A stretch of 64,000 bases of DNA from Acidimicrobiia bacterium (GTDB lineage: Bacteria; Actinomycetota; Acidimicrobiia; Spongiisociales; ZC4RG35): the NCBI GenBank assembly GCA_050741915.1, contig JBOGEX010000126.1:10668-74667 (forward strand), read 5' to 3'. This document shows, one piece after another, positions 29,741-56,436 of this stretch (the stretch's first letter is position 1; each line of letters begins with the position of its first letter). The position numbers were made by a program, and so were the translations under genes. The notes beneath the pieces are model-generated. The model worked only from the letters and a program-made list of their open reading frames with translations, was not told where the DNA came from and made no database searches.

Positions 29741-29749
29741 GGGAGAACA

Positions 29750-41870: not shown

Positions 41871-41883
41871 GCACTTCTCCTTT

Positions 41884-41945: not shown

Positions 41946-43017
41946 CCTCTCCGTGCCAAAAGCGGCCGAGGCAATGGGCCTCCTCCGCCACCGCGGCAAG
42001 GTGTCGCTTCGACAGAGCGAGGTGCTCGATCACCAGCCGCATTGGCGACGCTTTTTCGAATCGCCAGATCGCTGCCACTTCTCCGTCGACGAGGACGGTG
42101 CCTTTGATCGGACCTTTAACGTCGGCAAATCTCCGCTTCTGGTCAGCGCCAAACCGAGAACGGTCGGCGTGTCCCAGGAGCAGATTGTCGTACTCGGGCA
42201 AGAACCGAACCGGAGCGGTGGTGTCAGGGTCGGGCCGGGGCGCGTCGGGCAAATCGAACAACTCGGTTCCGCGCTTGTTGCGAAACGTCACCAGCCGTGG
42301 CCGCAGCCCCTCGACCACCTTCCGGAGTCCGGTAAGCCGCGACCAGTTCGAGATGTCGGCGACCGAGGCTGGACCGAAGGCCGCCAGATACTTGAGCACC
42401 ATCGCGGCAGTTGACGGCGCCGGGTCCATTGGCTTTCCCACCCAAGACTCGAGGGTGGCTAGTTCGACCTGCCGGGTCTTTCCCCAAACTCCCCGTGGAG
42501 GAGCCTGGATCAGAGGGAGGAGGCATCGACATGCATAGACCAGAGCGGTGGGGTTGAGGCTCGGGAAAGTCTCTGCCAGGGCTGCCCGCAACTCGGGACC
42601 GCTCAGAGGCCGCCATGCCAGGAGCGGCCGGGCAACTGCCAGAACCGGCTCGATGTCGACTCCGGCCAACGCCGGAGCAAAATCGCGATGGCGGGAAAGC
42701 TCGGCGGTGAGTACCGGTTGGGTGAGGGGGCGCAGCCAGAGCGCATCATCGGCGGTGAGCAAGTGGATCGTTGCCCTCATGGCGACGATTCGCACGAGGG
42801 ACCGGTCCTCGATCAGCTTGCCCAAATGAGTCGGCTCGAAACTGTCCAGCCTCGACCACAGGGCCAGATAGGGATCGAGGGGATTCTGGGCCTGGAGACC
42901 GACGAGCATTTCGACGGCGGACATGAGAGGCATCGATGATCGTCGCAATAAGAGCTGACGCTCGAGCGAGGCTCGATTCAGTTGGCGGTTGGTGATGAGT
43001 TCAGCGGACGAGGGCAT
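41911..43017 (-). CDS. Winged-helix DNA-binding domain protein (AlkZ/YcaQ-like, DUF1006)
   Basis: 368 aa; architecture and composition match the AlkZ-like DNA-glycosylase/YcaQ family. Family call from overall resemblance. Confidence 0.6.
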   Translation of the reverse strand: MPSSAELITNRQLNRASLERQLLLRRSSMPLMSAVEMLVGLQAQNPLDPYLALWSRLDSFEPTHLGKLIEDRSLVRIVAMRATIHLLTADDALWLRPLTQPVLTAELSRHRDFAPALAGVDIEPVLAVARPLLAWRPLSGPELRAALAETFPSLNPTALVYACRCLLPLIQAPPRGVWGKTRQVELATLESWVGKPMDPAPSTAAMVLKYLAAFGPASVADISNWSRLTGLRKVVEGLRPRLVTFRNKRGTELFDLPDAPRPDPDTTAPVRFLPEYDNLLLGHADRSRFGADQKRRFADVKGPIKGTVLVDGEVAAIWRFEKASPMRLVIEHLALSKRHLAAVAEEAHCLGRFWHGEVETQFSGLEPL

Positions 43018-43763
43018 CGAGACCGATGGTGATCATCCGTTCCACCGCTTCGTGCACCACCGGTCGGTCGGGGTTGTAACCCTCCATCGAGTCGTCCTTC
43101 TCGAGAAGGGGATTCCCATCGATGGCCAGGATGGCTCCTGCCGTGGATCCATGTAGTGAAGCAAGGACGAGAAGAGCGGCGACCTCCATTTCCACTGCCA
43201 CCAGTCCCGCTTGTTGCCACATCGGGAGACTGCTGCCGAGAACCGCGTGTGGATAGAACGACGCCAGGGTCAGCACGATCCCGCGATGGACCTCGACCCC
43301 GGCGGCCGCGGCCGCCCCCAGCAGACTGTCGACCACCTTATGGTCAGCCACCGCTGGATACTCGATCGGGACCACTTGCTGGGTGTAACCATCGGTACGG
43401 ACCGCGGCAGTGGCCACGACCAGGTCCCCGTCGAGGACGTTTGCTTGCAGGCCTCCGGCGGTGCCTGCTCGAATCACTCGTCCGGCACCCGCTCGAAACA
43501 ACTCCTCGAAACAGACTGCCGCTCCGGCGCTTCCCACCCCGTGGGACACGGTGGCTACCTCGATATCGTGGCGACGGCCGGCGAACGAGACGTACTCGCG
43601 AGTGCGGCCCAGCTCCCTCACATCGTCGAGGTGTTCCGCGGCCTTCTCGGCTCGGTTGGGATCGCCGACCACCAGCACCCGCTTCGGGAGGTCGCCGGCC
43701 CGAAATCCGAGAATGGGCAGCTTGGAATCCTCGGGGACTCGGATGGGAGCCATCACCTCACCC
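43001..43763 (-). CDS. PNP/UDP family-1 nucleoside phosphorylase or nucleosidase (DeoD/MtnN-like)
   Basis: Start at ATG 43763 with RBS GGGGTGAGGTG. Motifs SHGVGSAGAAVCFEEL and VAVEMEVAAL match the hexameric PNP/MTA-nucleosidase fold. 254 aa. Confidence 0.7.
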
Positions 43764-44825
43764 CCTGAGACCTGACACAAGGCGATCGAGGTCCTCCTCG
43801 CTTGTCCACCACCCGACTGAGGCGCGCACGAGACCGGTCTTGGGTATGTCGCGGACCAACACTCCCGCCGATGCCAGACGGGCAACGACATCGGCTGGCA
43901 CCACGCCTTGGGGTCTCCACGAGACGATGGTGGCACGCTCAGTCGGGGAAACAACGTCCTCGCCGGCATCTGCGAGCATTTGGTGACAGCGCTCGGCCAT
44001 CTCCGTTCCTCGAGTGAAACCCCAGTCGGGTCGATTAGCCAGCGCCGCCAGCCAACCCGACATCGAAGCCGTGGAGAGCAAGCTGGGGTCGAAGCGACGG
44101 GCGCCGGGCCAGGGCGCGAAGGAACCGTCCGGTTCGTAGCTTTCCTGTGAGAAATAGCTGGGCCGCGCTACCCGCAGCTGGTCGGCGTCGGCAACCACGA
44201 GGGCACCGGTGGACTCAGGGCCACAAAGCCACTTTTGGCCCGAGATCGTCATGAAATCGAGACCCCCGGCCAAGACGGGCATGGAGCCAACCGACTGGGC
44301 GCCATCGACCAGGATCGGAATCTCCGTTTGCTCTCGGAGCTCATGAACCGGAAGCACTCGCCCCGTTGTCCACAGCACTTGGGAAACGGCTATCAGGCGT
44401 GTTCTCAAAGTTACGGCCTCGATGATCGCTTGCGGATCCGGGGCCGTGACCACCACCCGCGCTCCTGAACTGTGGAGCGGACCGAGGAGCCCGAAGTGCT
44501 CGTCGGTGGTGGTGATGATCTCGTCACCGGGCCCGAGCTCGAGCCCGGCCAAGACCAGATTGCAGCCGTCAGTCGTCGACGCCGTCAACGCCACTTGCGT
44601 CGCTTCGACAGCAACGAGTGAGGCAAGCTCGTCACGCAGCTTCGCCCGCAGCGCCAGAACCCGGTCGAAGGAGTCTTGCCCCGACCTACCTTCCATCAGG
44701 TTGCGCTCGTCTTCGGCGTGCATGGCCGCGATGGTTTGGCGGGCGAGCGGCCCGGTGCTTCCAGCCTGAAGATAGGCAATTCGCTCGAGCACCGGAAACT
44801 GAGCCCGTGCCTCGGCGTAAGTCAT
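43758..44825 (-). CDS. Class V aminotransferase-fold PLP-dependent enzyme
   Basis: Start at ATG 44825 (MTYAEARAQFPVLERIAYLQAGSTGP...), typical of the class V (SufS/CsdA-like) fold. PLP-Lys context ISGQKWLCGP. Confidence 0.75.
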   Translation of the reverse strand: MTYAEARAQFPVLERIAYLQAGSTGPLARQTIAAMHAEDERNLMEGRSGQDSFDRVLALRAKLRDELASLVAVEATQVALTASTTDGCNLVLAGLELGPGDEIITTTDEHFGLLGPLHSSGARVVVTAPDPQAIIEAVTLRTRLIAVSQVLWTTGRVLPVHELREQTEIPILVDGAQSVGSMPVLAGGLDFMTISGQKWLCGPESTGALVVADADQLRVARPSYFSQESYEPDGSFAPWPGARRFDPSLLSTASMSGWLAALANRPDWGFTRGTEMAERCHQMLADAGEDVVSPTERATIVSWRPQGVVPADVVARLASAGVLVRDIPKTGLVRASVGWWTSEEDLDRLVSGLRG

Positions 44826-44830
44826 CGGCA

Positions 44831-46771
44831 CTAGATCACCCGCTCGTTTCCACCGTCGATCGGAATCTGGGCACCGGTGGTCGCTCGATAACGGTCCGAG
44901 CACAGATCAGCGACAATGGTCGCCACGGTCCTGGCGCTGACCTCAATCTTGAGCAGGTTGCGACGCTTGTAGTCCTCCACTTCGAGGCCATACGCGGCGG
45001 CCCGAGACCGAATCAGATCCTCGGTCCAGATGCCGGTGTCGAAAACACCGTCGGGGTGAACGATGTTGACTCTGATGCCGGCCTCGGCCCATTCCAGCGC
45101 CGCGACGCGGGCGAGCTGAGTCAAGGCGGCTTTCGAGGCCGAGTACGCCGCCGCTCCCTTGCCTGGAGCGGTGGCATTGCGCGAAGCAACCACCGCCACT
45201 CTTCCTCCTACCGGCGATCGACGCAAGAACGGTTCGAGATCACGCAGCAGCGCACCAACCGCCCGCACATTTACTGCCATGACCCGATCCCATGAGTCCA
45301 AGTCGAGGTCGGCCACGTTCTGGGACTCCCCGAAGACGCCAGCTCCGATGACGGCGATGTCGATCCCCCCGAAGTGATCGATAGCCTGGGCAATGGCCGC
45401 CTGTTGCTCACGATCCTTGGTGACGTCGAGTTGCAACCCGAGACAGCCGGGCTCACTGATCGTCGGATCAGCGATGTCGAACCCGACTACTGCCGCTGCC
45501 CGATCGAGAAGCTCCATGGCACATGCTCGACCGATGCCCGATGCCGTTCCGGTCACGAGAGCGACCATTCCCCCGAACTCGGGCGGCGGACCCGAACGCT
45601 GGAGCTTGGCCTGTTCGAGGTCCCAGTACTCGCAGTCGAAAAGATCCTCGGGCGATAGTGCCTGGTAGCCGCCCAGCTGATCTTCGGCGCGCTCCAGGAC
45701 CGGGATCGTGTGGTGGTAGATGTCGGCAGCTATGTCGGCTTCGGCTAGCGAGCGCCCGGTGGTGAGCATGCCCCACGCCGAATCGAGCACGACCCGCGGC
45801 GACGGATCGAGCATTTGCAGGTCGCGTCCTGTCCGCTCTTGGTTGGCCTCGAAATATTCGGTGTAGTCCTGGGCGAACTGGCCGACATCTCGCCCGATCA
45901 ACGGCGCGCGCTTGGTCCGGATGACGTGGTCGGGCGTGAGGGGACCGCGGCTAGCGAGCGAGGCGAGGTCGGGCCGAGATACGAACCGGGCGACATCGGG
46001 ATCGGCGTGGCGGCGGACAATCATCGGTGCTCCGGCCACCTGCGAAATCCTCTGGCGAAGCTCGGCCAGTTCAACCGGGTTGGACGGCGGCAGGGGCTTG
46101 GAAGTAGCTGTCGAGGGCGGCCCCAGGTAAAGCTCGGCTTTGGCAATCAACTCGACGTGCCGTTCATAGGCCTCGCGAGTGGTGTCGCCGAAGGTAAAAA
46201 GCCCATGGTTCATCAGGACCATTCCGATCGCCGAGGTATCGGTCGGCCACACTTTTCGAACCAGCCGAGCGAGATCGAATCCCGGCATGACATAGCGGAC
46301 AACCACCACGTCATCGCCGTAGGCGTCGCGGACGCGGGCGTCACCGTTGGCCAAGTTGGTCAAGTTGACGATTACATCGGCGTGCGAGTGCTGTACCGCC
46401 GGATAAGGGAGGAAGGCGTGAAGCAGGCTCTCCACTGATGGCTGAGGAGCTCCCGGGTCGAGGCGAGCTGCCGACAGCTCGCGCATCATTTCCTGATCGG
46501 AGATGGCCTCGAGGTCGAGCAGCTCGACGAGCCTGCTCATGCGCAAGGGTGTGAATCCGGCAGCTTCGATCGTGCTCAGGTCCCAGCCCGATCCCTTCAC
46601 GAAGAGAGCGTCGATCTCGATCCCGGTTATGTCGAGGTATGACCCCTTGACCGAAGTATTGCCACCACCGTGGAGCACGAGGCCCCGGTCGGATCCCAAA
46701 AGGCGCGAGCCATAGACACATTGCTCGAGCGGCGACGAACCGGCGTCGGCGTCTATCCAGCGGCTCTCCAT
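44831..46771 (-). CDS. Bifunctional class II aldolase/adducin-domain plus short-chain dehydrogenase fusion (RhaD/YuxG-like)
   Basis: Start at ATG 46771 (MESRWIDADAG...). N-terminal class II aldolase domain (HGGGNTSVK, metal-binding VQHSHADV). C-terminal SDR domain (TGTASGIGRA, YSASKAAL). 646 aa. Confidence 0.8.
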   Translation of the reverse strand: MESRWIDADAGSSPLEQCVYGSRLLGSDRGLVLHGGGNTSVKGSYLDITGIEIDALFVKGSGWDLSTIEAAGFTPLRMSRLVELLDLEAISDQEMMRELSAARLDPGAPQPSVESLLHAFLPYPAVQHSHADVIVNLTNLANGDARVRDAYGDDVVVVRYVMPGFDLARLVRKVWPTDTSAIGMVLMNHGLFTFGDTTREAYERHVELIAKAELYLGPPSTATSKPLPPSNPVELAELRQRISQVAGAPMIVRRHADPDVARFVSRPDLASLASRGPLTPDHVIRTKRAPLIGRDVGQFAQDYTEYFEANQERTGRDLQMLDPSPRVVLDSAWGMLTTGRSLAEADIAADIYHHTIPVLERAEDQLGGYQALSPEDLFDCEYWDLEQAKLQRSGPPPEFGGMVALVTGTASGIGRACAMELLDRAAAVVGFDIADPTISEPGCLGLQLDVTKDREQQAAIAQAIDHFGGIDIAVIGAGVFGESQNVADLDLDSWDRVMAVNVRAVGALLRDLEPFLRRSPVGGRVAVVASRNATAPGKGAAAYSASKAALTQLARVAALEWAEAGIRVNIVHPDGVFDTGIWTEDLIRSRAAAYGLEVEDYKRRNLLKIEVSARTVATIVADLCSDRYRATTGAQIPIDGGNERVI

Positions 46772-47529
46772 CAGTAGGGAGTGTCCCCGCCGTCGACGTT
46801 GATCGCTTGGCCCCGGATAATCAGAGCATCGTCGGAGAGGAGGAATGCGATGACCCGAGCGACCTCGGCCGGCTGGACCTTGCGACCCAACTGCGTCGGG
46901 CCCATTCCGGCCAGTAACTCGGCGGCGGGAACCCCAACTCGGGGCTCGAGCCATTGCGCCACCCCGGCCAGCATTGGGGTGTCGACCCCTCCCGGGCAAA
47001 CCGCGTTGACGTTGATGTTGTGCTCAGCCCATTCCATCGCCAGCGAGCGGGTAAGGCTGATCACGGCGGCTTTCGCCGCGTTGTAGGCCGCCATGTTCTT
47101 ATAACCGACCTTCCCGCAATTCGAGGCGACGTTGACGATCGCCCCGCCTCGTTCCTTGAGATGATTTCCGACCTGACGCGAACATAGAAAAGTTCCGGTG
47201 ACGTTGACGTCAAGCTGGTGACGCCAATCGCTCGCGCCTGCGTCCCAAGCCGTGTCGAGCACAACCGCCCCAGCGTTGTTGACCAACCCGTCGATGCCGC
47301 CCCAGGCATCGACGACCTCCTCCACCGCCGCGGCCACGTCTGCTTCGTTGGTGACGTCGCAAGCGATGGGAAGGGTACGGGCGATATCAAGGGCGGCAGC
47401 GGCCGTCCGCACGCGGTCACCATCCAGATCCACCATCGCCACCAGGGCGCCTCGCTCCAGCAAGACTTCCGTGATCGCCGAGCCGATTCCCCCTCCGGCC
47501 CCAGTCACCACGTACCTCCTGCCCTCCAC
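46771..47529 (-). CDS. Short-chain dehydrogenase/reductase (SDR)
   Basis: GTG 47529 (VEGRRYVVTGAGGGIGSA...). NNAG motif and catalytic YNAAK. Its stop overlaps the ATG of the aldolase fusion. Confidence 0.75.
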   Translation of the reverse strand: MEGRRYVVTGAGGGIGSAITEVLLERGALVAMVDLDGDRVRTAAAALDIARTLPIACDVTNEADVAAAVEEVVDAWGGIDGLVNNAGAVVLDTAWDAGASDWRHQLDVNVTGTFLCSRQVGNHLKERGGAIVNVASNCGKVGYKNMAAYNAAKAAVISLTRSLAMEWAEHNINVNAVCPGGVDTPMLAGVAQWLEPRVGVPAAELLAGMGPTQLGRKVQPAEVARVIAFLLSDDALIIRGQAINVDGGDTPY

Positions 47530-47534
47530 TGCGG

Positions 47535-48269
47535 CTACCACGTGGGGTTGGTAAGCACGCCCCCGTCGACCACCAGGTCGACGCCGGTGATGAACCTGGC
47601 CAGATCGGAGCACAGAAACACGCAGGCATCTCCGACATCGTCGGCTGTGCCCAGGCGTCCCAAGGGAACAGCCGACATCCAACGCTGCACTCCCTCCGGC
47701 CAGTCCCGAGCCAAACCGGGGCGATCGATCAGACCTGGGGAGACGGTGTTGATTCGGATGCGATGCCGGCCGAGCTCCGAGGCCGCCGCCCGGGCGTGCA
47801 TCCGCACCGCCGCCTTGGCAGTGGCGTAGTGGCCGTGTAAGGGCGCCGGCTGAATTCCCTCGATGGAGGCGATGTGGACGATCGATCCGCCCTCTCCCTG
47901 AGCGATCATTTGCCGACCAACCACCTGAGTCATGCGATGAACCGCGGTCACGTTGGTTTCCAGCATGGATCGGAAGTCCTCATCAGAAACGTTCAGCGTG
48001 GAGGCGAGCGGTTGGATACCGGCGTTATTGACCAATCCATCAACCCGGCCAAAAGCCTCCAACGCCGCTTCCACTATCAGGGTCGGAGTCGCGGCCGCAT
48101 TCAAGTCGACCTCGAGGACGACCTGTTTTGGTGCCGTGTCCAACACCGGAGAGGAGCGGGTGGCCAGCACCAAAGAAGCGTTGGCCGTGGCGAAGCTCCG
48201 GGCGATGCCCGCTCCCACCCCTCCACCGGCTCCCGTGACGATTATCACTCGGCCGCTGAGATCGATCAT
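47535..48269 (-). CDS. Short-chain dehydrogenase/reductase (SDR)
   Basis: ATG 48269 (MIDLSGRVIIVTGAGGGVGAG...). NNAG motif and catalytic YATAK. 245 aa. Confidence 0.75.
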   Translation of the reverse strand: MIDLSGRVIIVTGAGGGVGAGIARSFATANASLVLATRSSPVLDTAPKQVVLEVDLNAAATPTLIVEAALEAFGRVDGLVNNAGIQPLASTLNVSDEDFRSMLETNVTAVHRMTQVVGRQMIAQGEGGSIVHIASIEGIQPAPLHGHYATAKAAVRMHARAAASELGRHRIRINTVSPGLIDRPGLARDWPEGVQRWMSAVPLGRLGTADDVGDACVFLCSDLARFITGVDLVVDGGVLTNPTW

Positions 48270-48994
48270 CTGGTCCTGACCAAAGAAAAGGTGAAGCGTC
48301 CTTCGATGAAGTACGTGCGGTTGAACATCACTGGCCGAGCGCTGTCGTGGTAGTGAACCTGGGACAAAAGCACGTAGGCGGCGTTTCGTGGGCGCTTTCC
48401 CCAACCGATGTCGCCTCCGGCGGCGGCATGGATATCGGTAACGGCGGTGGCGACGTCGATGCCGTTTTTCGTCAGGGCTTCAAAGAGAGAACCAGTCAAC
48501 GACGACACCTCGAAATCCGGTGGCAGCAGGCGACGATCAATGGCGTCATAGGAGAACGCCACCACTTGGCCCGACGCCGTCAGCGAACGGTTGGTCGCAA
48601 TTACCAGAGCACCCTCACCCAGTTCGAGTCGGTCCCTTTCGTCGGGGGTAGCCGCTCTCACCCGGCGCGAGCGGTAGCTCATGCCCGGCTCGAGACCGGA
48701 GAAGCGAATGGTCGCCGACAAAGACTCGAGCCGGCGAAGATCGGCCCTGATCTCGGCCTGAGCAGGCGTGGCAAAGGTGCCGAGGCCATGACGAGTGATC
48801 GTGAGGCCCAAGCTCTCGAGCCGCCCGAGAGCGCTGCGAACCGTGGGCCGGGAAACGCCAAACTCGGCACTGAGCTGATGCTCGGTCGGGAGGCGCTCGC
48901 CCGGCTTCCACTCACCCCGTCGCAGCCGATCACTGAGCTCGGAAGCCACCTGGTCGGTCAGTCGGGAAGCCGGCACCGTTCGATCATACGGCAA
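48266..48994 (-). CDS. GntR-family transcriptional regulator (HutC subfamily: GntR HTH plus UTRA effector domain)
   Basis: N-terminal GntR HTH (LPTEHQLSAEFGVSRPTVRSALGRLESLGL) and a C-terminal UTRA-like domain. TTG start at 48994. Its stop overlaps the downstream SDR start. Confidence 0.8.
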   Translation of the reverse strand: MPYDRTVPASRLTDQVASELSDRLRRGEWKPGERLPTEHQLSAEFGVSRPTVRSALGRLESLGLTITRHGLGTFATPAQAEIRADLRRLESLSATIRFSGLEPGMSYRSRRVRAATPDERDRLELGEGALVIATNRSLTASGQVVAFSYDAIDRRLLPPDFEVSSLTGSLFEALTKNGIDVATAVTDIHAAAGGDIGWGKRPRNAAYVLLSQVHYHDSARPVMFNRTYFIEGRFTFSLVRTR

Positions 48995-49005
48995 ACGGTC
49001 GCGTG

Positions 49006-49018
49006 GTTGTCAGACAAC
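49006..49018 (+). promoter_or_regulatory. Perfect palindrome GTTGTCAGACAAC (putative GntR/HutC operator), site 1
   Basis: Lies 12 bp upstream of the gntR-like TTG start and overlaps the cupin stop codon. An identical 13-mer is at 50779-50791. Confidence 0.5.
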
Positions 49019-49462: not shown

Positions 49463-50763
49463 ACCGACGCCAGAGACATTGCTCGGTCATTCACCTCCGA
49501 ACGGACTCCGGCCAGATCGACGGTCAGGACACCTGTCTCGTCGACAACGCGGCGCCCCCCTACCCACACCCCTTTTATGAGCCCGGGATGACCGGAGTAG
49601 ACGAGGTGGGTGATGAGGTCACGGTCTTCGGTAATCGGCACCAAGGAGTCGGTATCGAGCAGGATCATGTCGGCTCTCGCTCCGGTTCCCAGGTGCCCGA
49701 GATCCTGTCGGCCGAGCGCCAGTGCTCCTTCTCTCGTGGCCATTTCCAGGACGTCGGTGGGTCCCAGGGCACCGGCATCAGCTGCGCGCAGGCGGGCGAG
49801 ACGGAGGGCACCCCTCATATCTTCGAAGAGGTCGAGCCGATCGTGCGAGGCCGGGCCATCGGTCCCGAGGCCAACCCGGATGCCGGCCCTTCTCATCTCC
49901 GTCACCCGGGCAATGCCCGAGGCGTGCTTGCCATTCGACGAGGGGCAATGAGCCACGGCTGCCTCGTGCGTGGCGAGCATCTCGATGTCGTCGTCAGAGA
50001 GCCAAACCGAATGAGCCGCAACTACGGGAGAGTCGAGAATCCCAACTTTTTCGAGGTAGGCCGTTACAGACATGCCGGTGGTCGCGGTGACGGCATCTCC
50101 TTCATGTTCCGCTTCGGCCAGATGGATCTGGATGTGCATTCCGTTCTGCCGAGCCAGGTCGGCGACCATGCGCAAGGCTTCCTCGGCCACGGCATAAGCC
50201 GAATGAGGACCAAAGCCGACGCTGATCAGCTCGTGGTGCTGCCAGCGACGCGCTTCTTCCACCATCGCTTCGACTTGAGACTCCCAATCGCCGAAGCGAG
50301 CCAGGTCTGCGGCCACCAGGATCGGCGGTGTCACCACGCAGCGAAGGCCGGCGCGGTTGGCGGCGTTGGCCACCGCCCGGGGATAGAAGTACATCTCATG
50401 GCTGGTGGTTATCCCATTGCTCAAGAGCTCGGCGGCACCCAGCGTCATCGCCAGTTCCACGTCCGCGGGCGTGAGCCTTCCTTCCCGGGGCCACATCACC
50501 TCGGTGAGCCATCGCGAGACCGGCAGCCCTTCACCCGCCCCCCGCAGGAGGACCATGGGGGTATGGGCATGGGTGTTGATCAGCCCCGGTATAAGCAAAC
50601 CGTGCAGTTCGACTGATTCGCCTTCGAATCTGGGAGCTTCCACGGCAGGGCCAGACCAGGTCACCAGTCCGTCGGTCACGTCGACCGCCGCCCGCGCCAC
50701 TACCTCCGGTTGTGCCGTCATCGTTATCAACCGGTCGCAGAGGAACCTGGTCACGACCGGCAT
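49459..50763 (-). CDS. Amidohydrolase-superfamily nucleoside/nucleobase deaminase (MtaD-like MTA/SAH deaminase or related chlorohydrolase)
   Basis: Start at ATG 50763 (MPVVTRFLCDRLITMTAQPE...). Metal-binding HxH (INTHAHTPM) and downstream His/Asp residues of the ATZ/TRZ-MtaD family. About 434 aa. Confidence 0.7.
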   Translation of the reverse strand: MPVVTRFLCDRLITMTAQPEVVARAAVDVTDGLVTWSGPAVEAPRFEGESVELHGLLIPGLINTHAHTPMVLLRGAGEGLPVSRWLTEVMWPREGRLTPADVELAMTLGAAELLSNGITTSHEMYFYPRAVANAANRAGLRCVVTPPILVAADLARFGDWESQVEAMVEEARRWQHHELISVGFGPHSAYAVAEEALRMVADLARQNGMHIQIHLAEAEHEGDAVTATTGMSVTAYLEKVGILDSPVVAAHSVWLSDDDIEMLATHEAAVAHCPSSNGKHASGIARVTEMRRAGIRVGLGTDGPASHDRLDLFEDMRGALRLARLRAADAGALGPTDVLEMATREGALALGRQDLGHLGTGARADMILLDTDSLVPITEDRDLITHLVYSGHPGLIKGVWVGGRRVVDETGVLTVDLAGVRSEVNDRAMSLASV

Positions 50764-50778
50764 GGTAAGTTTCCGGTA

Positions 50779-50791
50779 GTTGTCAGACAAC
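50779..50791 (+). promoter_or_regulatory. Perfect palindrome GTTGTCAGACAAC (putative GntR/HutC operator), site 2
   Basis: In the divergent mtaD-like/mtnA region, 16 bp upstream of the mtaD-like ATG and overlapping the mtnA TTG start. Identical to site 1. Confidence 0.5.
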
Positions 50792-51844
50792 CTCGAAACC
50801 GCGTCGAACCTTCGGAGTGTCGACTGGGGCGACGACGCCCTGGTGATCATCGATCAGACCTTGCTCCCCGGGGAAGTGAGCTATTTGCGGCTCACCACCG
50901 TCGATCAAGTGGTGCGGGCTATCAAATCCTTGGCCGTGCGCGGAGCGCCCTCGATTGGGGTGGCCGGGGGTTTCGGAGTGATCCTCGCCTTTCGGGAGTT
51001 CTCGACCGAAAAGGCGCAGTTCGTCTCGGCGGTGGAGTCACTGCGCAGGGTTCGACCAACCGCCGTCAACCTCGCCCGATCGGTCGATCGGGTCGCACGA
51101 CGGGCGGAGGAGGGGATGGAAGCGATGCTGGCGGAGGCGACTGCTATCCGCGACGAGGAGATCGCGGCCTGCTGGTCGATGGGCATCAATGGCGCCGAGT
51201 TGCTTGTCGAGTTGTTGGGGAACCGCCCGCAGCGATTGATGACCATCTGCAATACCGGTGGCCTGGCCGCGGTGGAGCGAGGGACGGCACTGGGTGTGAT
51301 TCAGACGATGTTCGAGAGGGGTCTGCTGGAGGAGGCACTGGCGGTCGAGACGCGACCTCTTCTCCAGGGAAGCCGGCTCACCACCTGGGAGCTTGCCCGG
51401 ATGGGAGCGCCCTTTCGCCTGTTGGTGGATTCCGCTGGCCCTTTCGTTCTTGCCCGTGGTGGAGCAGAGGCGGTTCTGACCGGCGCCGACCGAATTGCTG
51501 CCAACGGCGACACCGCCAACAAAGTTGGATCCTTGGCCCTGGCGCTTGGCGCTAGGCACGCCGGGGCACCTTTCATCGTGGTCGCCCCAGAATCGACAAT
51601 CGACGAAGACACTCCCACCGGAGACATGATCGAGATCGAAGACCGCGGCGCCGCCGAGGTGATAGCCGCCGCCGGAATCCAGCTTGCGCCCGAAACCACC
51701 CAGGCTTTGAACCCGGCGTTCGATGTCACACCAGTTGAGCTGATCACTGCCATCGTTACCGACCGGCGGATCGTCAGAGTCGATCGAGGTGAAAAGCTCG
51801 CCGACGTTCCGTTGGGCGAGCGACGCCTCAGAGCTGAACAGTGA
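50780..51844 (+). CDS. mtnA: S-methyl-5-thioribose-1-phosphate isomerase (eIF-2B alpha/beta/delta-like)
   Basis: N-terminus ...RSVDWGDDALVIIDQTLLP (compare the RSVEW...DQ..LP family pattern). A conserved Cys/Asp-containing C-terminal domain. 354 aa. TTG start. Confidence 0.8.
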   Translation: MSDNLETASNLRSVDWGDDALVIIDQTLLPGEVSYLRLTTVDQVVRAIKSLAVRGAPSIGVAGGFGVILAFREFSTEKAQFVSAVESLRRVRPTAVNLARSVDRVARRAEEGMEAMLAEATAIRDEEIAACWSMGINGAELLVELLGNRPQRLMTICNTGGLAAVERGTALGVIQTMFERGLLEEALAVETRPLLQGSRLTTWELARMGAPFRLLVDSAGPFVLARGGAEAVLTGADRIAANGDTANKVGSLALALGARHAGAPFIVVAPESTIDEDTPTGDMIEIEDRGAAEVIAAAGIQLAPETTQALNPAFDVTPVELITAIVTDRRIVRVDRGEKLADVPLGERRLRAEQ

Positions 51845-51860
51845 AATAGGAGGAGGACCC

Positions 51861-52919
51861 ATGAAGAAGTACACCCAGTTGATGACCGCTGTGGGCGTCG
51901 TGACGTTGCTGGCAGCCTGCGCGGGCGAGAGCACCGCCACCACCAACGGCGGGGGTGGCACTGTGACGACGGGAGCCGCCGACGGGCCGACGTTCATCTA
52001 CATCACGCCGAACCCGATCGGCATCAACAAGTTCCTCGAGCTTGGACAGATCGGCACCCAGCGGGCGGCGGAGGCGACTGGCGGTAGCTTCAAAGTCTTC
52101 GAGAGCACCGATCTCAACAGCCGGCGAGCCAACGTCGAGGCTGCCATCGAGGAAGCTCCCGACGTAATCGTCCTCACGACGTTCGAGTTCACGGAGATGG
52201 CAGCCGAGTTTGCTCCCGCCATCCCCGAGCAGGAGTTCATCCTGATCGACGCCTGCCCCGAGTCCGAGTCGCCGATCGAGAACCTCCATTGCGGGGTTTT
52301 CCGCGAGCACGAAGGTGCCTACCTACTCGGTTTGATGGCGGGCAACCTCACCGAAAGCGGCCAGATCGGTTCGGTGGTGGCCCTCGACATTCCGTTCCTC
52401 CATCGTTGGTCGGACAGCTTCGCCCTCGGGGCGCAAACGATCGATCCATCGATCACCGACTCGCAGGTATTCATCGCCGGCGACAACCCGTTCTCCGATC
52501 CCGCCACCGCCAAAGAACAGGCCTTGGCTCTGGCAGCCCAGGGGGCGGATCAGATCTTCGCGGTCGGCGCAGGTTCTAACGGTGGAATCTTCGAGGCGGC
52601 CGTGGAGGAAGGATTCATGACCTACGGCGTGGACGTGAATCAGTGTCCCGATGCCCCGGGATCGATCGTCGACAACAACCTCAAGCTGGTCGACATCGTC
52701 GTCGAACAGCTCATCAACTCGATCCTCGACGGCAGCGCCGAACCGCTGACCTCGTTCGGTCTGGCCGAAGGTGGAACCGGCGTCGTTGCGATCTCAGACG
52801 AACTCGCCGATTCGGAGTGCCTGATCGCCGACTTTCCCGAGATTGTCTCCCAGGTCCAGACCGCGGCCGACCAGATCATCGACGGTTCGCTGGAAGTCCC
52901 CGACCCCCTATTCGGCTGA
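51861..52919 (+). CDS. BMP-family (PnrA/Med-like) nucleoside-binding ABC transporter lipoprotein
   Basis: ATG 51861 with a strong RBS AGGAGGA. Lipobox LLAACAG; BMP-family fold. Confidence 0.8.
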   Translation: MKKYTQLMTAVGVVTLLAACAGESTATTNGGGGTVTTGAADGPTFIYITPNPIGINKFLELGQIGTQRAAEATGGSFKVFESTDLNSRRANVEAAIEEAPDVIVLTTFEFTEMAAEFAPAIPEQEFILIDACPESESPIENLHCGVFREHEGAYLLGLMAGNLTESGQIGSVVALDIPFLHRWSDSFALGAQTIDPSITDSQVFIAGDNPFSDPATAKEQALALAAQGADQIFAVGAGSNGGIFEAAVEEGFMTYGVDVNQCPDAPGSIVDNNLKLVDIVVEQLINSILDGSAEPLTSFGLAEGGTGVVAISDELADSECLIADFPEIVSQVQTAADQIIDGSLEVPDPLFG

Positions 52920-52923
52920 CAAA

Positions 52924-54432
52924 GTGCCGAACGTGCTCGAACTCCGGGGAATCAGCAAGAGTTTCCCCGGAGTTCGTGCCAACGACGACGTGGACCTCGA
53001 GGTTCGCAAGGGCGAAATCCACGCCATCGTCGGTGAGAACGGAGCCGGCAAGACAACATTGATGTCAATCCTGTATGGATTGACGAGCCCCGACGCCGGG
53101 GAGATCATGGTTGATGGGCAATCCGTGCGATTCACCTCGGCCCTCGACGCGATTGCCGCCGGGCTGGGAATGGTTCATCAAGCCTTCAAGCTCTTCCCAA
53201 CCATGACCGTGGCGGAAAACGTGGTATTTCGCAACGAGCCTCGCCATGGCATCTTTCTCGATCGCGAGGAAGCAGCCGAACGAGTTCGAGCGTTGGGCTC
53301 GGAGTACGGGCTGGCGGTTGACCCGCAGGCACGAATCGAGGATCTGCCCGTCGGGGTTTTGCAACGGGTCGAGATTCTCAAGGCCCTCTATCGGGATGCT
53401 CAGGTTCTGATTCTCGACGAGCCCACGGCGGTCTTGACTCCGCAAGAAAGAGACAACCTCTTTGTAACCCTCCGGCGTCTCAAAGAGCGTGGGAGGACGG
53501 TGATCTTTATCACCCACAAACTTGCCGAGGTCATGGCGGTCTCCGATCGCGTCACCGTCCTGCGGGCCGGAAGGGCCGTCGCCCATCTCGACACCGCCTC
53601 GACCTCGCCGGCGGAGATGTCCCGGCTGATGACCGGACGGACCGTGGACCTCGACAGCCGCCCTCCACCATCGAATCTCGGAGCGCCGGTTCTCACCGTT
53701 GCCCACCTGACAGTGCGTGACGAGCACGGCTTCGCTCGGGTCGACGACGTTTCCTTTGAAGTCCGCTCCGGTGAGATTCTGGGGGTGGCGGCCGTGGCCG
53801 GCAACGGCCAGCACGAGCTCATCGAGGCGATCTGCGGTCTTCGGTCCCCCGATCAAGGATCGATCGCGGTGGGCGAGCGCGACGTTGCCACCGCCGACAT
53901 CGCTACCACCCGGCAAAGCGGCCTGGCATACATCCCCGAAGATCGGCATCGAGTGGGTACCGCTGCGGGAGGAGAGGTCTGGGCCAACCTGGTGATGGGA
54001 TTCCAGCGGTTAAAGCGATTTCGCCGGGGACGTTTCATTCGCCGGGCGGAGGTCGAAGAGCACGCGCGACGCATCATTGCCGATTACGACGTTCGCGTGT
54101 CGGGACCAGACGTTTCGGCCCACACTCTCTCGGGGGGAAACCTGCAGAAGGTGGTGGTCGGACGGGAGATGTCTCATGCCGCTCCGTTACTGGTGGCGGA
54201 ACAGCCGACCCGGGGTGTGGATGTCGGCGCCATCGAGTTTTTCCACCGCCAGCTCGTCGACTATCGGGATAAGGGCGGTGGGGTGCTGTTGTTGTCAGCG
54301 GAGTTGAGGGAGCTGCTGGCGCTTTCCGGCCGGATGGTGGTCATGTACGAGGGCCGGATAGTTGCCGAACTCGATCCGGCCGAAACGGACGAGGCAGAGC
54401 TGGGCTTTTTTATGACCGGGGGGACGAAGTGA
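52924..54432 (+). CDS. ABC transporter ATP-binding protein with two fused nucleotide-binding domains (nucleoside/sugar type)
   Basis: GTG 52924. Two Walker A / signature sets (GENGAGKTT ... LSGGNLQKV). Confidence 0.8.
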   Translation: MPNVLELRGISKSFPGVRANDDVDLEVRKGEIHAIVGENGAGKTTLMSILYGLTSPDAGEIMVDGQSVRFTSALDAIAAGLGMVHQAFKLFPTMTVAENVVFRNEPRHGIFLDREEAAERVRALGSEYGLAVDPQARIEDLPVGVLQRVEILKALYRDAQVLILDEPTAVLTPQERDNLFVTLRRLKERGRTVIFITHKLAEVMAVSDRVTVLRAGRAVAHLDTASTSPAEMSRLMTGRTVDLDSRPPPSNLGAPVLTVAHLTVRDEHGFARVDDVSFEVRSGEILGVAAVAGNGQHELIEAICGLRSPDQGSIAVGERDVATADIATTRQSGLAYIPEDRHRVGTAAGGEVWANLVMGFQRLKRFRRGRFIRRAEVEEHARRIIADYDVRVSGPDVSAHTLSGGNLQKVVVGREMSHAAPLLVAEQPTRGVDVGAIEFFHRQLVDYRDKGGGVLLLSAELRELLALSGRMVVMYEGRIVAELDPAETDEAELGFFMTGGTK

Positions 54433-55505
54433 TCAGCCAGAGCTCGTCAAACCGACTTTCCGTCGCCCTGGCCATCGCGGCCGCATTGCTGATCGGCGCC
54501 ATCGTGATCGCTCTCTCCGGTACCAACCCGGTGTTGGCTTATCGAGAGATGGTTGATGGCGCCTTGACCGGCTCCGGCCTTCGCAACACGTTGGCCCGAA
54601 TGATCCCGATTGTGGGAATGGGGCTGGCGCTCTCGATCCCGTTCCGCGCCGGAGTGATAAACCTGGGAGGTGAGGGTCAGATGGTGCTGGGCGGGCTGGC
54701 CGGGACTCTCGTTGCCATCTACCTCCCCGGCCCGCCGGCGCTAGCCATCGTGGCGGCGATTCTGGCGGGGGCTGTGGCCGGCTCTTTTTGGGCCTTTCTT
54801 GCGGCCGCCGGCCAGATCTGGCTCAAGCTGCCGATTTTGATCAGCTCGCTGCTTCTGGCCTATCCGGCCCGGGCGATCACCAGCTATCTGGTCCGCTTTC
54901 CTTTCGCCGACCCAACCGTCACTTCCTCCTCGACAGTCCCGGTGCCATTGCCCAACCGCATCCCCAAGCTCCCGCTGTTCGGAGGAATCTCGGCCAGCAT
55001 CATCCTGCTCGCTCTTTTCTTGATAGCGATTGCCGTCTTCAACCAGCGAACCGTGGCGGGCTATGAGACGAGGATGACAGGGTTCAACTCTCGCTTCTCG
55101 CGCTATGGGGGAGTGGGAGTCGACCGGCAGGTGATCTGGGTCATGATCGCTTCGGGGGCGATCAGCGGGGTGATCGGCACCCATCTGGTGGTCGGGGAAA
55201 CATATCGGTTCCTCGATGGCGACTTGGTTGTCTCTGGTTTCGCCTGGACCGGGTTGCTCGTCACGCTTCTGGCTGCCCATCGTCCCCTACCGATGCTGGC
55301 GGCAGGGGCGTTTTTTTCCGCCTTGCAGATCGGCGGTCTGGCTATGCAGCGGAATGTCAACGTTCCCTGGCAGATCGCTCTTGTCCTGCAGGCGGTGGTA
55401 ATCGTCATGCTCGCCGGTCGTTTCGTCCTCAGCTGGCGCCAGCGGGAGAAAGCCGACGAGGTTCCCATGGTGGAGGGGGAACTCACCGTGACGGGCGAGG
55501 TCTGA
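54429..55505 (+). CDS. ABC transporter permease (BMP-system permease 1)
   Basis: Polytopic 358-aa permease. GTGA overlap with the ATPase. Confidence 0.75.
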   Translation: MISQSSSNRLSVALAIAAALLIGAIVIALSGTNPVLAYREMVDGALTGSGLRNTLARMIPIVGMGLALSIPFRAGVINLGGEGQMVLGGLAGTLVAIYLPGPPALAIVAAILAGAVAGSFWAFLAAAGQIWLKLPILISSLLLAYPARAITSYLVRFPFADPTVTSSSTVPVPLPNRIPKLPLFGGISASIILLALFLIAIAVFNQRTVAGYETRMTGFNSRFSRYGGVGVDRQVIWVMIASGAISGVIGTHLVVGETYRFLDGDLVVSGFAWTGLLVTLLAAHRPLPMLAAGAFFSALQIGGLAMQRNVNVPWQIALVLQAVVIVMLAGRFVLSWRQREKADEVPMVEGELTVTGEV

Positions 55506-55512
55506 TGTAGAC

Positions 55513-56427
55513 ATGTTTGATCAGCTTTTCGACGGGGCGCTGCTCGAATCGGTGGTCCGAGCGCTGATACCGATTCTTTTGGCTGCCATCGGGGGGTTGG
55601 TGTGCGAGAGAGCCGGGGTCTTTCAGATCTCGCTAGAAGGAATGATGCTTGTCGGCGCATTTGTTGCCGTAGCCGGCTCCTACCTCGGGCAAAGCGCGTT
55701 GTTGGGAGTCACCATCGCCATGGTCGTAACCGCACTGTTCTCGCTCATCCTTGCGTACGGGGCAGTCAGCCGGCGAGGCGATCCGATCGTGCTGGGGGTG
55801 GCGGTGAACCTGCTCGCCCTCGGCTTGACGAGCTTCTTCTTGCCCCAGCTCTTCGGAGTCCGAGGAGTGTTGCAGCACCCACGGATCGACGGTCTCGATC
55901 AGTTCGGCGTTCCGATCCTGTCCGACATTCCCCTCGTTGGCCAGGCGCTGTTCAATCTCACGGTTCCGGCCTATATGGCACTTTTGGCGATACCGGTGAT
56001 CTGGGTGTTTCTTTTCCGCACTCCGATCGGTTTGCGCCTGCGCGGGGTGGGCGAACGACCGGCCTCGGCTGAGACCCTGGGAGTGAGTCCGACTCAGTAC
56101 AAATACGCAGCCGTGGTTTTCTCCGGTTTGGCGTGCGGTCTCGCCGGAGCGCAGCTGGCGCTGGGAAACGTGGTTCAGTTCGCCGAGAACATGAGCTCCG
56201 GACGGGGATGGATTGCGGTGGTGGCGGTCATGCTGGGTCGGGCCCATCCGGTCGGAGTGCTGGGCGCCAGCGCCCTTTTCGGACTCGCCGAAGGTTTGGG
56301 TTTTCGCCTGCAAGGAAACGGTCTTCCGGTCCAGATCACCGATGCGCTTCCTTATGTGGTCACGCTGATCGCCTTGGCCTTGGCCCGGAAGCGCTTCCAA
56401 AGGATCCTCGACCTGACCGCCGCCTAG
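55513..56427 (+). CDS. ABC transporter permease (BMP-system permease 2)
   Basis: Polytopic 304-aa permease. Confidence 0.75.
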   Translation: MFDQLFDGALLESVVRALIPILLAAIGGLVCERAGVFQISLEGMMLVGAFVAVAGSYLGQSALLGVTIAMVVTALFSLILAYGAVSRRGDPIVLGVAVNLLALGLTSFFLPQLFGVRGVLQHPRIDGLDQFGVPILSDIPLVGQALFNLTVPAYMALLAIPVIWVFLFRTPIGLRLRGVGERPASAETLGVSPTQYKYAAVVFSGLACGLAGAQLALGNVVQFAENMSSGRGWIAVVAVMLGRAHPVGVLGASALFGLAEGLGFRLQGNGLPVQITDALPYVVTLIALALARKRFQRILDLTAA

Positions 56428-56436
56428 AGCGGATTA

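Follow-up and report, generated by a model that had tools for sequence, protein, structure and literature searches.

A predicted DHAP-shunt variant with a fused aldolase/SDR enzyme in an uncultured Acidimicrobiia bacterium

Introduction

The DHAP shunt, or 5-deoxyribose salvage, can serve growth on exogenous 5'-methylthioadenosine (MTA) or 5'-deoxyadenosine, and it works through MtnP or MtnK, MtnA, and Ald2 in Rhodospirillum rubrum, Rhodopseudomonas palustris, and extraintestinal E. coli, and through DrdK-DrdI-DrdA in Bacillus thuringiensis (PMC6079011, PMC10986504, PMC5893883). The nucleoside is turned into a sugar-1-phosphate, and an MtnA-type isomerase, a class II aldolase yielding DHAP and a C2 aldehyde, and a dehydrogenase follow. 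Entry is through MtnP, or through MtnN together with MtnK, the aldolase Ald2/DrdA is a FucA-like protein of about 210 aa, and the regulator is the DeoR-type MtnR.

Another route leads from MTA through methylthioinosine to MTR-1-P; it is carried out by ADA and PNP in Plasmodium, and by an MTA deaminase and a methylthioinosine phosphorylase, the latter of the trimeric MtnP type, in Pseudomonas aeruginosa. Both organisms use this route for purine salvage, and neither is known to have onward MtnA and aldolase steps. In the haloarchaeal non-carboxylating pentose bisphosphate pathway, nucleoside ribose passes through ribose-1,5-bisphosphate and RuBP to ribulose-1-P by means of a kinase, an e2b2-type isomerase, and a phosphatase, and a class II aldolase then splits this product into DHAP and glycolaldehyde (PMC9700705). 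Finally, in the two-domain RhaEW, the SDR half works on the aldehyde freed by the aldolase half, oxidizing it with NAD+ and having no reductase activity (PMC3870299).

Results

Gene content and control of the locus

The window analyzed here is a 64-kb stretch of DNA from an uncultured Acidimicrobiia MAG, in which a 13-kb set of thirteen genes (43001-56427) was confirmed on its strands with Pfam and NCBIfam models and with independent gene calls on another assembly. All 13 genes named in the original prediction are present where it placed them, after small fixes to starts and labels, while the minus-strand block, previously given as about 9 kb, measures about 7.8 kb. The window lacks homologues of MtnP, PunA, Apt, and MtnK.

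On the plus strand, mtnA (50780..51844, 354 aa) is followed by genes for a BMP/PnrA-family substrate-binding lipoprotein (51861..52919; PF02608 at 3e-31, with 4PEV and the PnrA/TmpC structure 2FQW among its PDB relatives), an ABC ATPase with two nucleotide-binding domains (52924..54432; PF00005 matched twice, and the gene was also called independently), and two BPD_transp_2 permeases identified by profile match (54429..55505 and 55513..56427). We propose from these family matches that the BMP ABC system is a nucleoside-type importer, a component by which the locus differs from the DHAP shunt.

The regulator also differs from MtnR, being of the GntR/HutC type with a winged HTH and a UTRA domain (48266..48976, minus strand; PF00392 and PF07702). 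A 13-bp palindrome (6-1-6), GTTGTCAGACAAC, occurs in two copies with no strand assigned: copy 1 (50779..50791) sits over the TTG start codon of mtnA, 16-28 nt upstream of where the divergent amidohydrolase gene starts, and copy 2 (49006..49018) shares bases with the stop codon of the cupin gene, directly ahead of gntR. The exact 11-mer core has only these two occurrences in the 64-kb window, and the palindrome recurs in every orthologous locus having a GntR gene (L001-4, L006, L008, L015, L031). This palindrome is a conserved predicted operator, and the GntR/HutC-type protein is the probable repressor of the locus. The motif's conservation wherever the GntR orthologue occurs supports the earlier claim of co-regulation; instead of the single minus-strand operon that went with it, the block probably comprises two transcription units, since a second operator lies before gntR.

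The fused aldolase/SDR

The gene at 44831..46771 (minus strand) encodes a 646-aa Aldolase_II+SDR fusion that passes NCBIfam NF006196 with 898.7 bits (cutoff 831) and fails both rhamnulose-1-P aldolase/SDR models, TIGR02632 (423, cutoff 568) and NF006189 (404, cutoff 634). A genuine rhizobial RhaD from a rha locus shows the opposite pattern and shares only about 33% identity with the fusion. The fusion has the same two-domain layout as RhaEW and rhizobial RhaD, and each of its domains belongs to the same superfamily as theirs, but it differs in its NCBIfam equivalog and in having mtn and nucleoside genes in place of a rha context. The fusion gene has no rhamnose genes nearby, and none of the NF006196 loci examined has a rhamnose isomerase or kinase gene in its neighborhood. 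The earlier assignment to a DHAP-shunt-like pathway thus survives the test by RhaD grouping and rhamnose-gene neighbors that had been named in advance as its refutation.

The catalytic residues of both the aldolase and the SDR domain do not vary, and the class II aldolase fold was confirmed. With phmmer, the aldolase domain shows no similarity to solved structures of FucA, RhaD, or further class II aldolases, 3M4R excepted. Its RhaE-type, SDR-fused domain is not orthologous to Ald2/DrdA of the DHAP shunt. We propose that the fusion is a 5-(methylthio)ribulose-1-P/5-deoxyribulose-1-P aldolase with NAD-linked aldehyde conversion. Because RhaEW, its only characterized relative, oxidizes the aldehyde and lacks reductase activity (PMC3870299), the previous label "aldolase-reductase" may have to give way to "aldolase-dehydrogenase".

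MtnA, deaminase, and phosphorylase

MtnA scores 350 against TIGR00512 (cutoff 279) and 355 against NF004326 (cutoff 271), and only 136 against the ribose-1,5-bisphosphate isomerase model (cutoff 314), so that at the equivalog level it is a predicted 5-methylthioribose-1-P/5-deoxyribose-1-P isomerase. The haloarchaeal pathway is different in this respect, and its kinase, e2b2-type isomerase, and phosphatase have no counterpart here.

Instead of MtnP, or MtnN with MtnK, the locus has a deaminase and a hexameric-type PNP. The amidohydrolase (49459..50763, minus strand, 434 aa; MtaD/TRZ-ATZ deaminase group, PF01979 at 1e-63) has as its best PDB match the MTA/SAH deaminase 4F0R (2e-64), followed by 4DYK, 4GBD, the P. 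aeruginosa MTA deaminase, and 3LNP, and it is proposed to be an MTA/5'-deoxyadenosine (adenosine-type) deaminase. The PNP_UDP_1 phosphorylase (43001..43753, minus strand; PF01048 at 3.5e-36) has 250 aa in an independent gene call, its 322-aa ORF being over-extended, and its best solved relatives are Plasmodium PNPs (about 1e-39), which also cleave methylthioinosine. The alignment with PfPNP shows Arg27, Arg45, Arg88, Met183, Asp206, Val66, and Val73 in place, among them the residues that bind phosphate and purine, and no N-terminal His. Unlike in PfPNP, the position of Tyr160, a residue implicated in methylthioinosine specificity, holds Phe, and this counts against a role in MTA or 5'-deoxyadenosine use. 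The original "PNP/MtnN-type" assignment is therefore narrowed to a phosphorylase, given the retained phosphate-binding arginines, with the MtnN nucleosidase dropped, and we propose a hexameric-type methylthioinosine/5'-deoxyinosine (and inosine) phosphorylase yielding the sugar-1-phosphate. Deaminase followed by phosphorylase is also the order in Plasmodium and Pseudomonas.

Accessory genes

The locus further differs from the DHAP shunt in its additional SDR and Cupin_5 genes. The first classical SDR oxidoreductase (46771..47529, minus strand, 252 aa; PF13561/PF00106), whose stop codon overlaps the fusion start by 1 nt, has generic small-alcohol/ketone SDRs as best PDB matches and is conserved in Acidimicrobiia clusters. 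The second (47535..48269, minus strand, 244 aa; Pfam) also matches generic structures, with the "L-xylulose reductase" 4EGF first, and its relatives travel with Cupin_5, being adjacent to it in four loci (L020, L028, L093, L095). The Cupin_5 (DUF985) protein itself (49010..49462, minus strand, 150 aa; PF06172 at 3e-33, PDB relatives 1YUD and 1ZNP) occurs together with MtnA and SDR genes in other Actinomycetes. Its homologue in yeast, Cff1p, is required for furanone (MHF) synthesis, and we regard the Cupin_5 protein as a candidate isomerase or lyase with a pentulose phosphate as substrate.

The class-V PLP enzyme (43758..44825, minus strand; PF00266) had been labeled an aminotransferase, a label to be replaced, as it is closest to the C-DES cystine C-S lyase (1ELQ/1N2T, L-cysteine/cystine C-S lyase, 4e-27; SufS about 1e-13). 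Among the relatives of the locus, only the closest (L006) has this gene, a lineage-specific accessory; in two sister assemblies it has lost 369 bp in frame and with them the PLP lysine.

NF006196 loci in other genomes

The comparison covered 82 NF006196 loci from many phyla with their fetched flanks, 47 of them having at least 5 kb on both sides. An MtnA gene turns up in the fetched flanks at 37 of the 82 loci, and at 21 of the 47 with long flanks; it is within 300 bp of the NF006196 gene in about 18 loci of several phyla, with adjacency in Actinomycetota, Beta- and Zetaproteobacteria, and in a rough NJ tree the MtnA-linked loci are spread over the whole clade. The full set of BMP ABC system, MtnA, amidohydrolase, two SDRs, fusion, and PNP is found in about 12 Acidimicrobiia loci, and gene order is kept well beyond chance.

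Four Beta-/Zetaproteobacterial loci (L077, L034, L035, L085) have the order fused gene, MtnP, Apt, MtnA, with MtnP at 515.6 bits (equivalog cutoff 437). An MtnP-like gene adjoins MtnA in two freshwater relatives (L001, L015), an MtnK-like gene is present in L022, and a Shinella plasmid carries RefSeq-annotated mtnK-mtnA beside a sister fused subfamily. Other orthologous loci have a PunA-type inosine/guanosine phosphorylase (L005, L010, L014, L016), or Upp and PsuG, and these point to general nucleoside use.

Discussion

We hold with moderate confidence, from homology and gene context, that the locus serves the inducible uptake and catabolism of 5'-deoxy-type adenosine derivatives, chiefly MTA and 5'-deoxyadenosine, through a variant of the DHAP shunt. 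NF006196 membership, MtnA linkage, the MTA/SAH-type deaminase, the PNP, and the operator support this interpretation, which the original prediction had advanced. Against it count, besides the Phe at the Tyr160 position and the orthologous loci with PunA or with Upp and PsuG, that the fetched flanks of about half of the NF006196 loci lack MtnA, that deaminase and phosphorylase fall below cutoff in all NCBIfam equivalog models, that ordinary nucleosides, too, are among the substrates of the importer, PNP, and deaminase families, and that three SDR modules plus a cupin exceed the needs of the known shunt.

This surplus would be explained, together with the C-S lyase, by the extra functional groups of another modified nucleoside, for example S-adenosylhomocysteine, also a substrate of the closest solved deaminases, or a sugar- or 5'-modified natural product, and the SDR-Cupin_5 module is indeed conserved elsewhere. 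We consider this improbable, given that proteobacterial, cyanobacterial, and Chloroflexi NF006196 loci lack the accessory genes and MtnP-Apt-MtnA suffices there, that sister strains can dispense with the C-S-lyase-like gene, and that no result points to a candidate compound. Hardly credible is a 6-deoxyhexose locus of the L-rhamnose/L-fucose type, in which the fusion would be a true RhaEW/RhaD and MtnA and the nucleoside genes mere neighbors: the domain architecture is that of RhaEW and JGI annotations call relatives "rhamnose utilization protein RhaD", but this reading is largely refuted by the family models and low identity given above, by the absence of rhaA/rhaI, rhaB/rhaK, mutarotase, and rhamnose transporter from all inspected loci, and by the tight operon and common operator that couple the fusion to nucleoside genes.

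A rather unlikely, yet weightier, alternative is ribonucleoside catabolism without phosphopentomutase, in which any imported purine (or pyrimidine) riboside would undergo deamination and phosphorolysis to ribose-1-P, MtnA would make ribulose-1-P, and the fusion would release DHAP and glycolaldehyde for the SDRs. In bacteria, ribose-1-P normally goes via phosphopentomutase, and this speaks against the scheme, as do the equivalog-level MtnP and the Apt of the proteobacterial partners, the MTA/SAH rather than Add type of the deaminase, and the passing of the methylthioribose-1-P isomerase equivalog by MtnA. In its favor, BMP/PnrA-type importers and the PNP family take standard nucleosides, the PunA-type PNPs point the same way, Microthrix-type loci carry psuG and a BMP ABC system next to genes in the order upp - mtnA-like - fusion, and L094 has a classical adenosine deaminase in the vicinity of MtnA-Cupin_5. 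Moreover, the haloarchaeal nucleoside pathway ends in a ribulose-1-P aldolase that yields glycolaldehyde (PMC9700705), and a title cited in PMC6302742 reports that Mtn enzymes of B. subtilis metabolize ribose. If the enzymes of the locus show promiscuity at C5, the use of ribonucleosides and that of MTA and 5'-deoxyadenosine would overlap.

In the favored MTA/5'-deoxyadenosine pathway, the BMP-family ABC system would bring in the nucleoside, the MtaD-like amidohydrolase would deaminate it to the inosine analogue, and the Plasmodium-PNP-like phosphorylase would then form hypoxanthine and 5-methylthio- or 5-deoxy-ribose-1-phosphate, to be turned by MtnA into the ribulose-1-phosphate. The NF006196 aldolase domain would cleave the latter into DHAP and 2-(methylthio)acetaldehyde or acetaldehyde, which the attached SDR domain would convert with NAD(H), oxidation to the acid being more likely than reduction by analogy with RhaEW. 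The two free SDRs, Cupin_5, and the lineage-only C-S-lyase-like PLP enzyme would act on side or downstream products, and the GntR/HutC repressor, bound to the palindrome at the divergent start region and before its own gene, would presumably be released by a pathway intermediate. A physiological precedent exists in E. coli, which the DHAP shunt enables to grow on exogenous MTA and 5'-deoxyadenosine (PMC10986504).

Our literature search found no paper describing a fused-aldolase variant, and a fused aldolase-dehydrogenase is not known to have been tied to the pathway before; judged by sequence, it is not orthologous to the known shunt aldolase. The locus most likely takes up the waste nucleosides of S-adenosylmethionine chemistry and breaks their sugar down to a glycolytic intermediate and a two-carbon aldehyde.

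Gene Content and Organization of the Locus

The locus itself is confirmed, and every gene listed in the original prediction was borne out by Pfam and NCBIfam scans together with independent gene calls from another assembly of the same population. The window comes from an uncultured Acidimicrobiia bacterium, and its fused protein matches, at 100% identity, a protein listed by NCBI under an Acidimicrobiia MAG. On the minus strand, these scans and gene calls place a PNP_UDP_1 phosphorylase (43001-43753), a class-V PLP enzyme (43758-44825), the 646-aa Aldolase_II+SDR fusion (44831-46771), two free SDRs (46771-47529 and 47535-48269), a GntR/UTRA regulator (48266-48976), a Cupin_5 protein (49010-49462), and an amidohydrolase (49459-50763). 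Divergently, on the plus strand, they place MtnA (50780-51844), with 350.4 bits on TIGR00512 (cutoff 279) and 355.1 bits on NF004326 (cutoff 271), followed by a BMP substrate-binding protein (51861-52919), a two-NBD ATPase (52924-54432), and two permeases (54429-55505 and 55513-56427). The genes are tightly packed, with 0-5 nt gaps or overlapping stop and start codons, and only 16 bp separate the start codon of the amidohydrolase gene (50763) from that of the divergent mtnA (50780). The importer set is complete, with a Bmp lipoprotein, the two-NBD ATPase, and two BPD_transp_2 permeases, and these components make it an ABC importer of the BMP/PnrA nucleoside type, with a nucleoside as the predicted ligand.

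The locus is flanked by unrelated genes, including AlkZ-like, YgjP-like, GH1, TrmA-like methyltransferase, and class-III aminotransferase genes, other ABC systems, and an aldehyde dehydrogenase (28250-30568), and no sulfur- or methionine-salvage genes were found in the window flanks beyond the locus. Homologues of MtnP, PunA, Apt, and MtnK were searched for through the 64-kb window, and none were found. The AlkZ-like DNA glycosylase gene (41911-43017) has the same orientation as the phosphorylase gene, shares 17 nt with its 3' end, and may therefore be co-transcribed with it; the position of the glycosylase gene beside the cluster is not conserved in the other lineages examined (for example, in L001 and L005, two of the loci fetched from other genomes).

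The Fused Aldolase/Dehydrogenase and Its Family

The fusion belongs to NF006196, “bifunctional aldolase/short-chain dehydrogenase”, an NCBIfam equivalog without an assigned function, on which it scores 898.7 bits (cutoff 831) over profile positions 1-657, with PF00596 at residues 95-292 and PF13561/PF00106 at residues 479-717 of the ORF. Members of this family linked to MtnA or MtnP in Proteobacteria, Cyanobacteria, and Chloroflexi score 923-1139 bits. The residues expected at the metal site, Glu and three His (E114, H128, H130, and H189), are invariant across the family, as are the cofactor and catalytic motifs of the SDR domain, and 3M4R is the only solved aldolase structure detectable from the fusion sequence, with neither FucA, RhaD, nor any other aldolase structure being found.

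The same layout of an N-terminal Aldolase_II domain and a C-terminal SDR is seen in RhaEW and RhaD, and the original prediction had to be abandoned if the aldolase proved to be a genuine RhaD accompanied by rhamnose genes. This was not what we found. The fusion falls below the cutoffs of both RhaD models, with 423.1 on TIGR02632 (cutoff 567.75) and 403.9 on NF006189 (cutoff 634), a pattern opposite to that of a control RhaD from the rha locus of a Rhizobium leguminosarum plasmid (L087, with rhaI, rhaM, rhaS, and a kinase as neighbors), which scores 1194.7 and 1288.3 on the same two models and shares only ~33% identity with the window fusion. Moreover, whereas RhaEW and RhaD lie in a rhamnose locus, no rhamnose isomerase, kinase, or transporter was found in the window or in the NF006196 loci inspected, and the annotated cyanobacterial and Chloroflexi loci likewise show no rhamnose genes beside the fusion. 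The family scores, the low identity to RhaD, and the gene context thus essentially exclude L-rhamnose as the substrate.

What the fusion gene does travel with is mtnA. A scan with one genome per species yielded 80 NF006196-type loci, which were compared with the window proteins. An MtnA homologue occurs within the fetched flanks of 37/82 loci, in 21 of the 47 whose flanks each extend for 5 kb or more, and at 300 bp or less from the fusion gene in ~18. The MtnA-linked loci belong to Acidimicrobiia, Microbacteriaceae, Streptomycetaceae, Euzebya, and Beta- and Zetaproteobacteria, and a rough NJ tree, in which the RhaD proteins form a distant outgroup, places them throughout the NF006196 clade; NF006196 genes were also present in several cyanobacteria. 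Four proteobacterial loci have the order fused gene, MtnP, Apt, and MtnA, with MtnP at 515.6 bits (cutoff 437) and Apt well over its cutoff, while an MtnP-like gene adjoins MtnA in freshwater relatives of the window locus, and an MtnK-like gene is present in the Euzebya locus. The conservation of the neighborhood also holds for the cluster as a whole, given that the full window type, with the BMP ABC importer, MtnA, amidohydrolase, two SDRs, fusion, and PNP, and often Cupin_5 as well, recurs in about a dozen Acidimicrobiia, among them sponge symbionts and soil and freshwater MAGs. From this gene context, the fusion is predicted to split 5-methylthioribulose-1-P or 5-deoxyribulose-1-P into DHAP and an aldehyde.

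Several related arrangements were observed besides these. On a Shinella sp. WSD5-1 plasmid (L089 5911-13944, a complete RefSeq record), a member of a sister aldolase/SDR subfamily, sharing 37% identity with the window fusion, has a sugar ABC importer and mtnK-mtnA, as annotated in RefSeq, for neighbors, and is a kinase-type version of the fusion/MtnA arrangement. Stand-alone RhaE-type aldolase domains, with 38-39% identity to fusion residues 1-391/396, are encoded on S. meliloti pSymB (L096 7001-8251) and Paracoccus aminophilus pAMI4 (L097 7001-8242), in both cases by the last gene of an lsr-type AI-2 uptake operon (lsrK, regulator, lsrACDB), a placement which suggests that the RhaE-type aldolase family also takes a phosphorylated C5 diketone or ketose. 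A GlpD-like FAD-dependent glycerol-3-phosphate dehydrogenase gene (DAO + DAO_C) is found near the fusion in five loci (L012, L021, L033, L049, and L075), possibly in connection with the DHAP that is produced.

Regarding the redox direction of the SDR half, the domain carries an invariant Asp after the second strand, which in SDRs is generally taken as an indicator of NAD(H), and this suggests that NAD(H) is the cofactor used. RhaEW, the only characterized relative of the fusion, oxidizes its aldehyde in an NAD+-dependent manner and showed no activity with NADH (PMC3870299). By analogy with this NAD+-dependent oxidation, and with the Asp suggesting NAD(H), the SDR half may yield acetate or (methylthio)acetate instead of the alcohols. 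Therefore, of the “aldolase-reductase” originally proposed, the aldolase/SDR fusion stands, and the reducing direction does not agree with the RhaEW precedent, which points to NAD+-dependent oxidation.

Entry Enzymes and Accessory Genes

The best solved relatives of the amidohydrolase are MTA/SAH deaminases, with 4F0R (2e-64) followed by 4DYK, 4GBD, and 3LNP, and the protein scores under every NCBIfam equivalog cutoff (258 on NF005557, cutoff 522; 196 on NF012037, cutoff 779). The PNP_UDP_1 protein, which had been left as a PNP/MtnN-type phosphorylase or nucleosidase, is of the hexameric type, with Plasmodium PNPs as its best solved relatives. In the alignment with Plasmodium PNP, Arg27, Arg45, Arg88, Met183, Asp206, Val66, and Val73 are kept, Ser91 is replaced by Thr and Tyr160 by Phe, and there is no equivalent of the N-terminal His that contacts the 5'-OH. 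The residues compared were those binding phosphate and purine, together with Val66, Val73, and Tyr160 of the 5'-pocket of the Plasmodium enzyme. On this alignment, the sequence identifies the protein as a purine nucleoside phosphorylase and not a nucleosidase, and probably not as a uridine phosphorylase either. Plasmodium PNP also phosphorolyses methylthioinosine, which is made by the adenosine deaminase of the parasite.

The two free SDRs gave only generic small-alcohol/ketone SDR matches in the PDB and NCBIfam comparisons. We considered the SDRs and the cupin as a stereochemical adapter for a RhaD-like aldolase, and set this aside given that they are absent from the proteobacterial, cyanobacterial, and Chloroflexi NF006196 loci. 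Cupin_5 (DUF985) also travels with SDR and/or MtnA in unrelated Actinomycetes (L094 6004-7468, L093 6099-7597, and L095 3476-4686, beside 49010-49462 in the window), and in a Streptosporangiales contig, mtnA and the cupin gene share 8 nt and adjoin a gene for a BMP binding protein. This bacterial gene context hints at a pentulose phosphate from MtnA as the Cupin_5 substrate. In yeast, the Cupin_5 homologue Cff1p is needed for the synthesis of the furanone MHF, an AI-2 mimic with a sugar-derived precursor.

The class-V PLP gene is present as predicted, and the aminotransferase label was not upheld, as the nearest match to its product is C-DES, a cystine C-S lyase. In two sister assemblies of the same population, represented by a Logan contig (SRR27067781) and a contig of NCBI GCA_974320245.1, the gene has lost 369 bp in frame (window 44074-44442), including the SGQK PLP-lysine motif, and across the aligned flanks of the deletion, the Logan contig is 99.9-100% identical to the window. 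The gene thus appears to be dispensable or decaying in the sister strains, and because it is otherwise found only in the nearest relative of the window locus, the class-V PLP enzyme is not core to the system.

Regulation

The palindrome GTTGTCAGACAAC occurs exactly twice in the window. One copy, at 50779-50791, overlaps the TTG start of mtnA and lies 16-28 nt upstream of the amidohydrolase start codon, and the other, at 49006-49018, covers part of the cupin stop codon and directly precedes gntR. The same motif, GTTGTCNGACAAC, was found in all eight fetched loci with an orthologous GntR gene, one Microbacteriaceae locus among them, and in none of the remaining 80 of the 88 loci compared. The regulator has the winged HTH and UTRA domains of the GntR/HutC type (PF00392 + PF07702), with a conserved inverted repeat at the proposed regulated promoters, and because the motif tracks the GntR orthologue, the palindrome is credible as a putative GntR operator. 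With the second palindrome copy before gntR, the minus-strand “operon” probably forms two regulated units. As the operator lies over the mtnA TTG and the divergent start codons are 16 bp apart, both promoters must lie inside the neighboring coding region, or the mRNAs are leaderless. No Rfam match to a riboswitch or structured RNA was obtained in 41500-57500 at E <= 0.1, and the sigma-70 promoter and terminator scans over the locus gave counts at the level of the shuffled controls and were uninformative.

Alternative Substrates and Relation to the DHAP Shunt

The serious alternative to the salvage of MTA and 5'-deoxyadenosine is general ribonucleoside catabolism, in which ribose-1-P would be converted to ribulose-1-P and then to DHAP plus glycolaldehyde. 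The importer family favors it, and so do the PunA-type phosphorylases of some orthologous loci and the context of the Microthrix-type Acidimicrobiales (L029, L030, L032, L046, and L074), where an operon of upp, an mtnA-like gene (43% identity), and the fusion is flanked by a pseudouridine-5'-phosphate glycosidase-like (psuG, Indigoidine_A) gene and a TauE-family gene, with a BMP ABC system farther away, pointing to pyrimidine or general nucleoside use. Both routes are compatible with each other, provided that OH, H, and SCH3 are all accepted at C5 by the enzymes. A different modified nucleoside, such as SAH, could also be proposed as the substrate, and nothing specific supports it. At the level of comparative genomics, the salvage of MTA and 5'-deoxyadenosine is the supported, sequence-based interpretation.

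MTA and 5'-deoxyadenosine are unavoidable and inhibitory by-products of S-adenosylmethionine chemistry. Among bacterial routes for them, the DHAP shunt is the most widespread, yet many genomes with mtnP and mtnA lack a recognizable Ald2 or DrdA. The window system would work like the DHAP shunt or 5-deoxyribose salvage (PMC6079011, PMC10986504, and PMC5893883), with which it shares an MtnA/DrdI-type isomerase. In contrast to the shunt of R. rubrum, E. coli, and B. thuringiensis, it lacks a FucA-like class II aldolase of the Ald2/DrdA type, and instead of entry through MtnP, or MtnN plus MtnK, it has the deaminase and the Plasmodium-PNP-like phosphorylase, although MtnP or MtnK occurs in related loci. 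It further adds the importer, the accessory genes, and a different regulator, given that the E. coli shunt has a DeoR-type repressor unrelated to the GntR/HutC protein. Full-text literature searches, covering work outside subscription journals, returned no paper joining a fused aldolase/SDR with mtnA, 5-deoxyribulose, or the DHAP shunt, and a study of cyanobacteria states that strains with only mtnP and mtnA and no Ald2 “must employ another pathway” (PMC8102628).

A broader, joint proposal would be that NF006196 supplies the “missing” aldolase for salvaging 5'-deoxynucleosides, and does so widely, wherever mtnP and mtnA occur without Ald2, DrdA, or MtnB (many cyanobacteria, Chloroflexi, sulfur-oxidizing symbionts, Beta- and Zetaproteobacteria, and Acidimicrobiia), and that, in Acidimicrobiia and other Actinomycetes, SDR/Cupin_5 act on MtnA products or on the thio-aldehyde. 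We consider both parts together rather unlikely to be true. Within this proposal, one possibility for SDR/Cupin_5 is the aerobic formation of methanethiol from 2-(methylthio)acetaldehyde or 2-(methylthio)ethanol, and another is the formation of a DPD/MHF-like furanone, which, if true, would also be a pointer to the substrate of yeast Cff1p.

The occurrence of the fused family beside mtnA, mtnP, and mtnK across phyla makes it a concrete candidate for filling the missing-aldolase gap and, if this is true, thousands of proteins labeled “RhaD” or generically would have to be re-annotated. Its SDR/Cupin_5 partners offer a starting point for finding what follows downstream in the aerobic shunt (PMC5893883). 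The import-linked version suggests that abundant uncultured Acidimicrobiia of freshwater, marine, soil, and sponge habitats scavenge environmental MTA and 5'-deoxyadenosine for carbon, and possibly also as a source of reduced sulfur.
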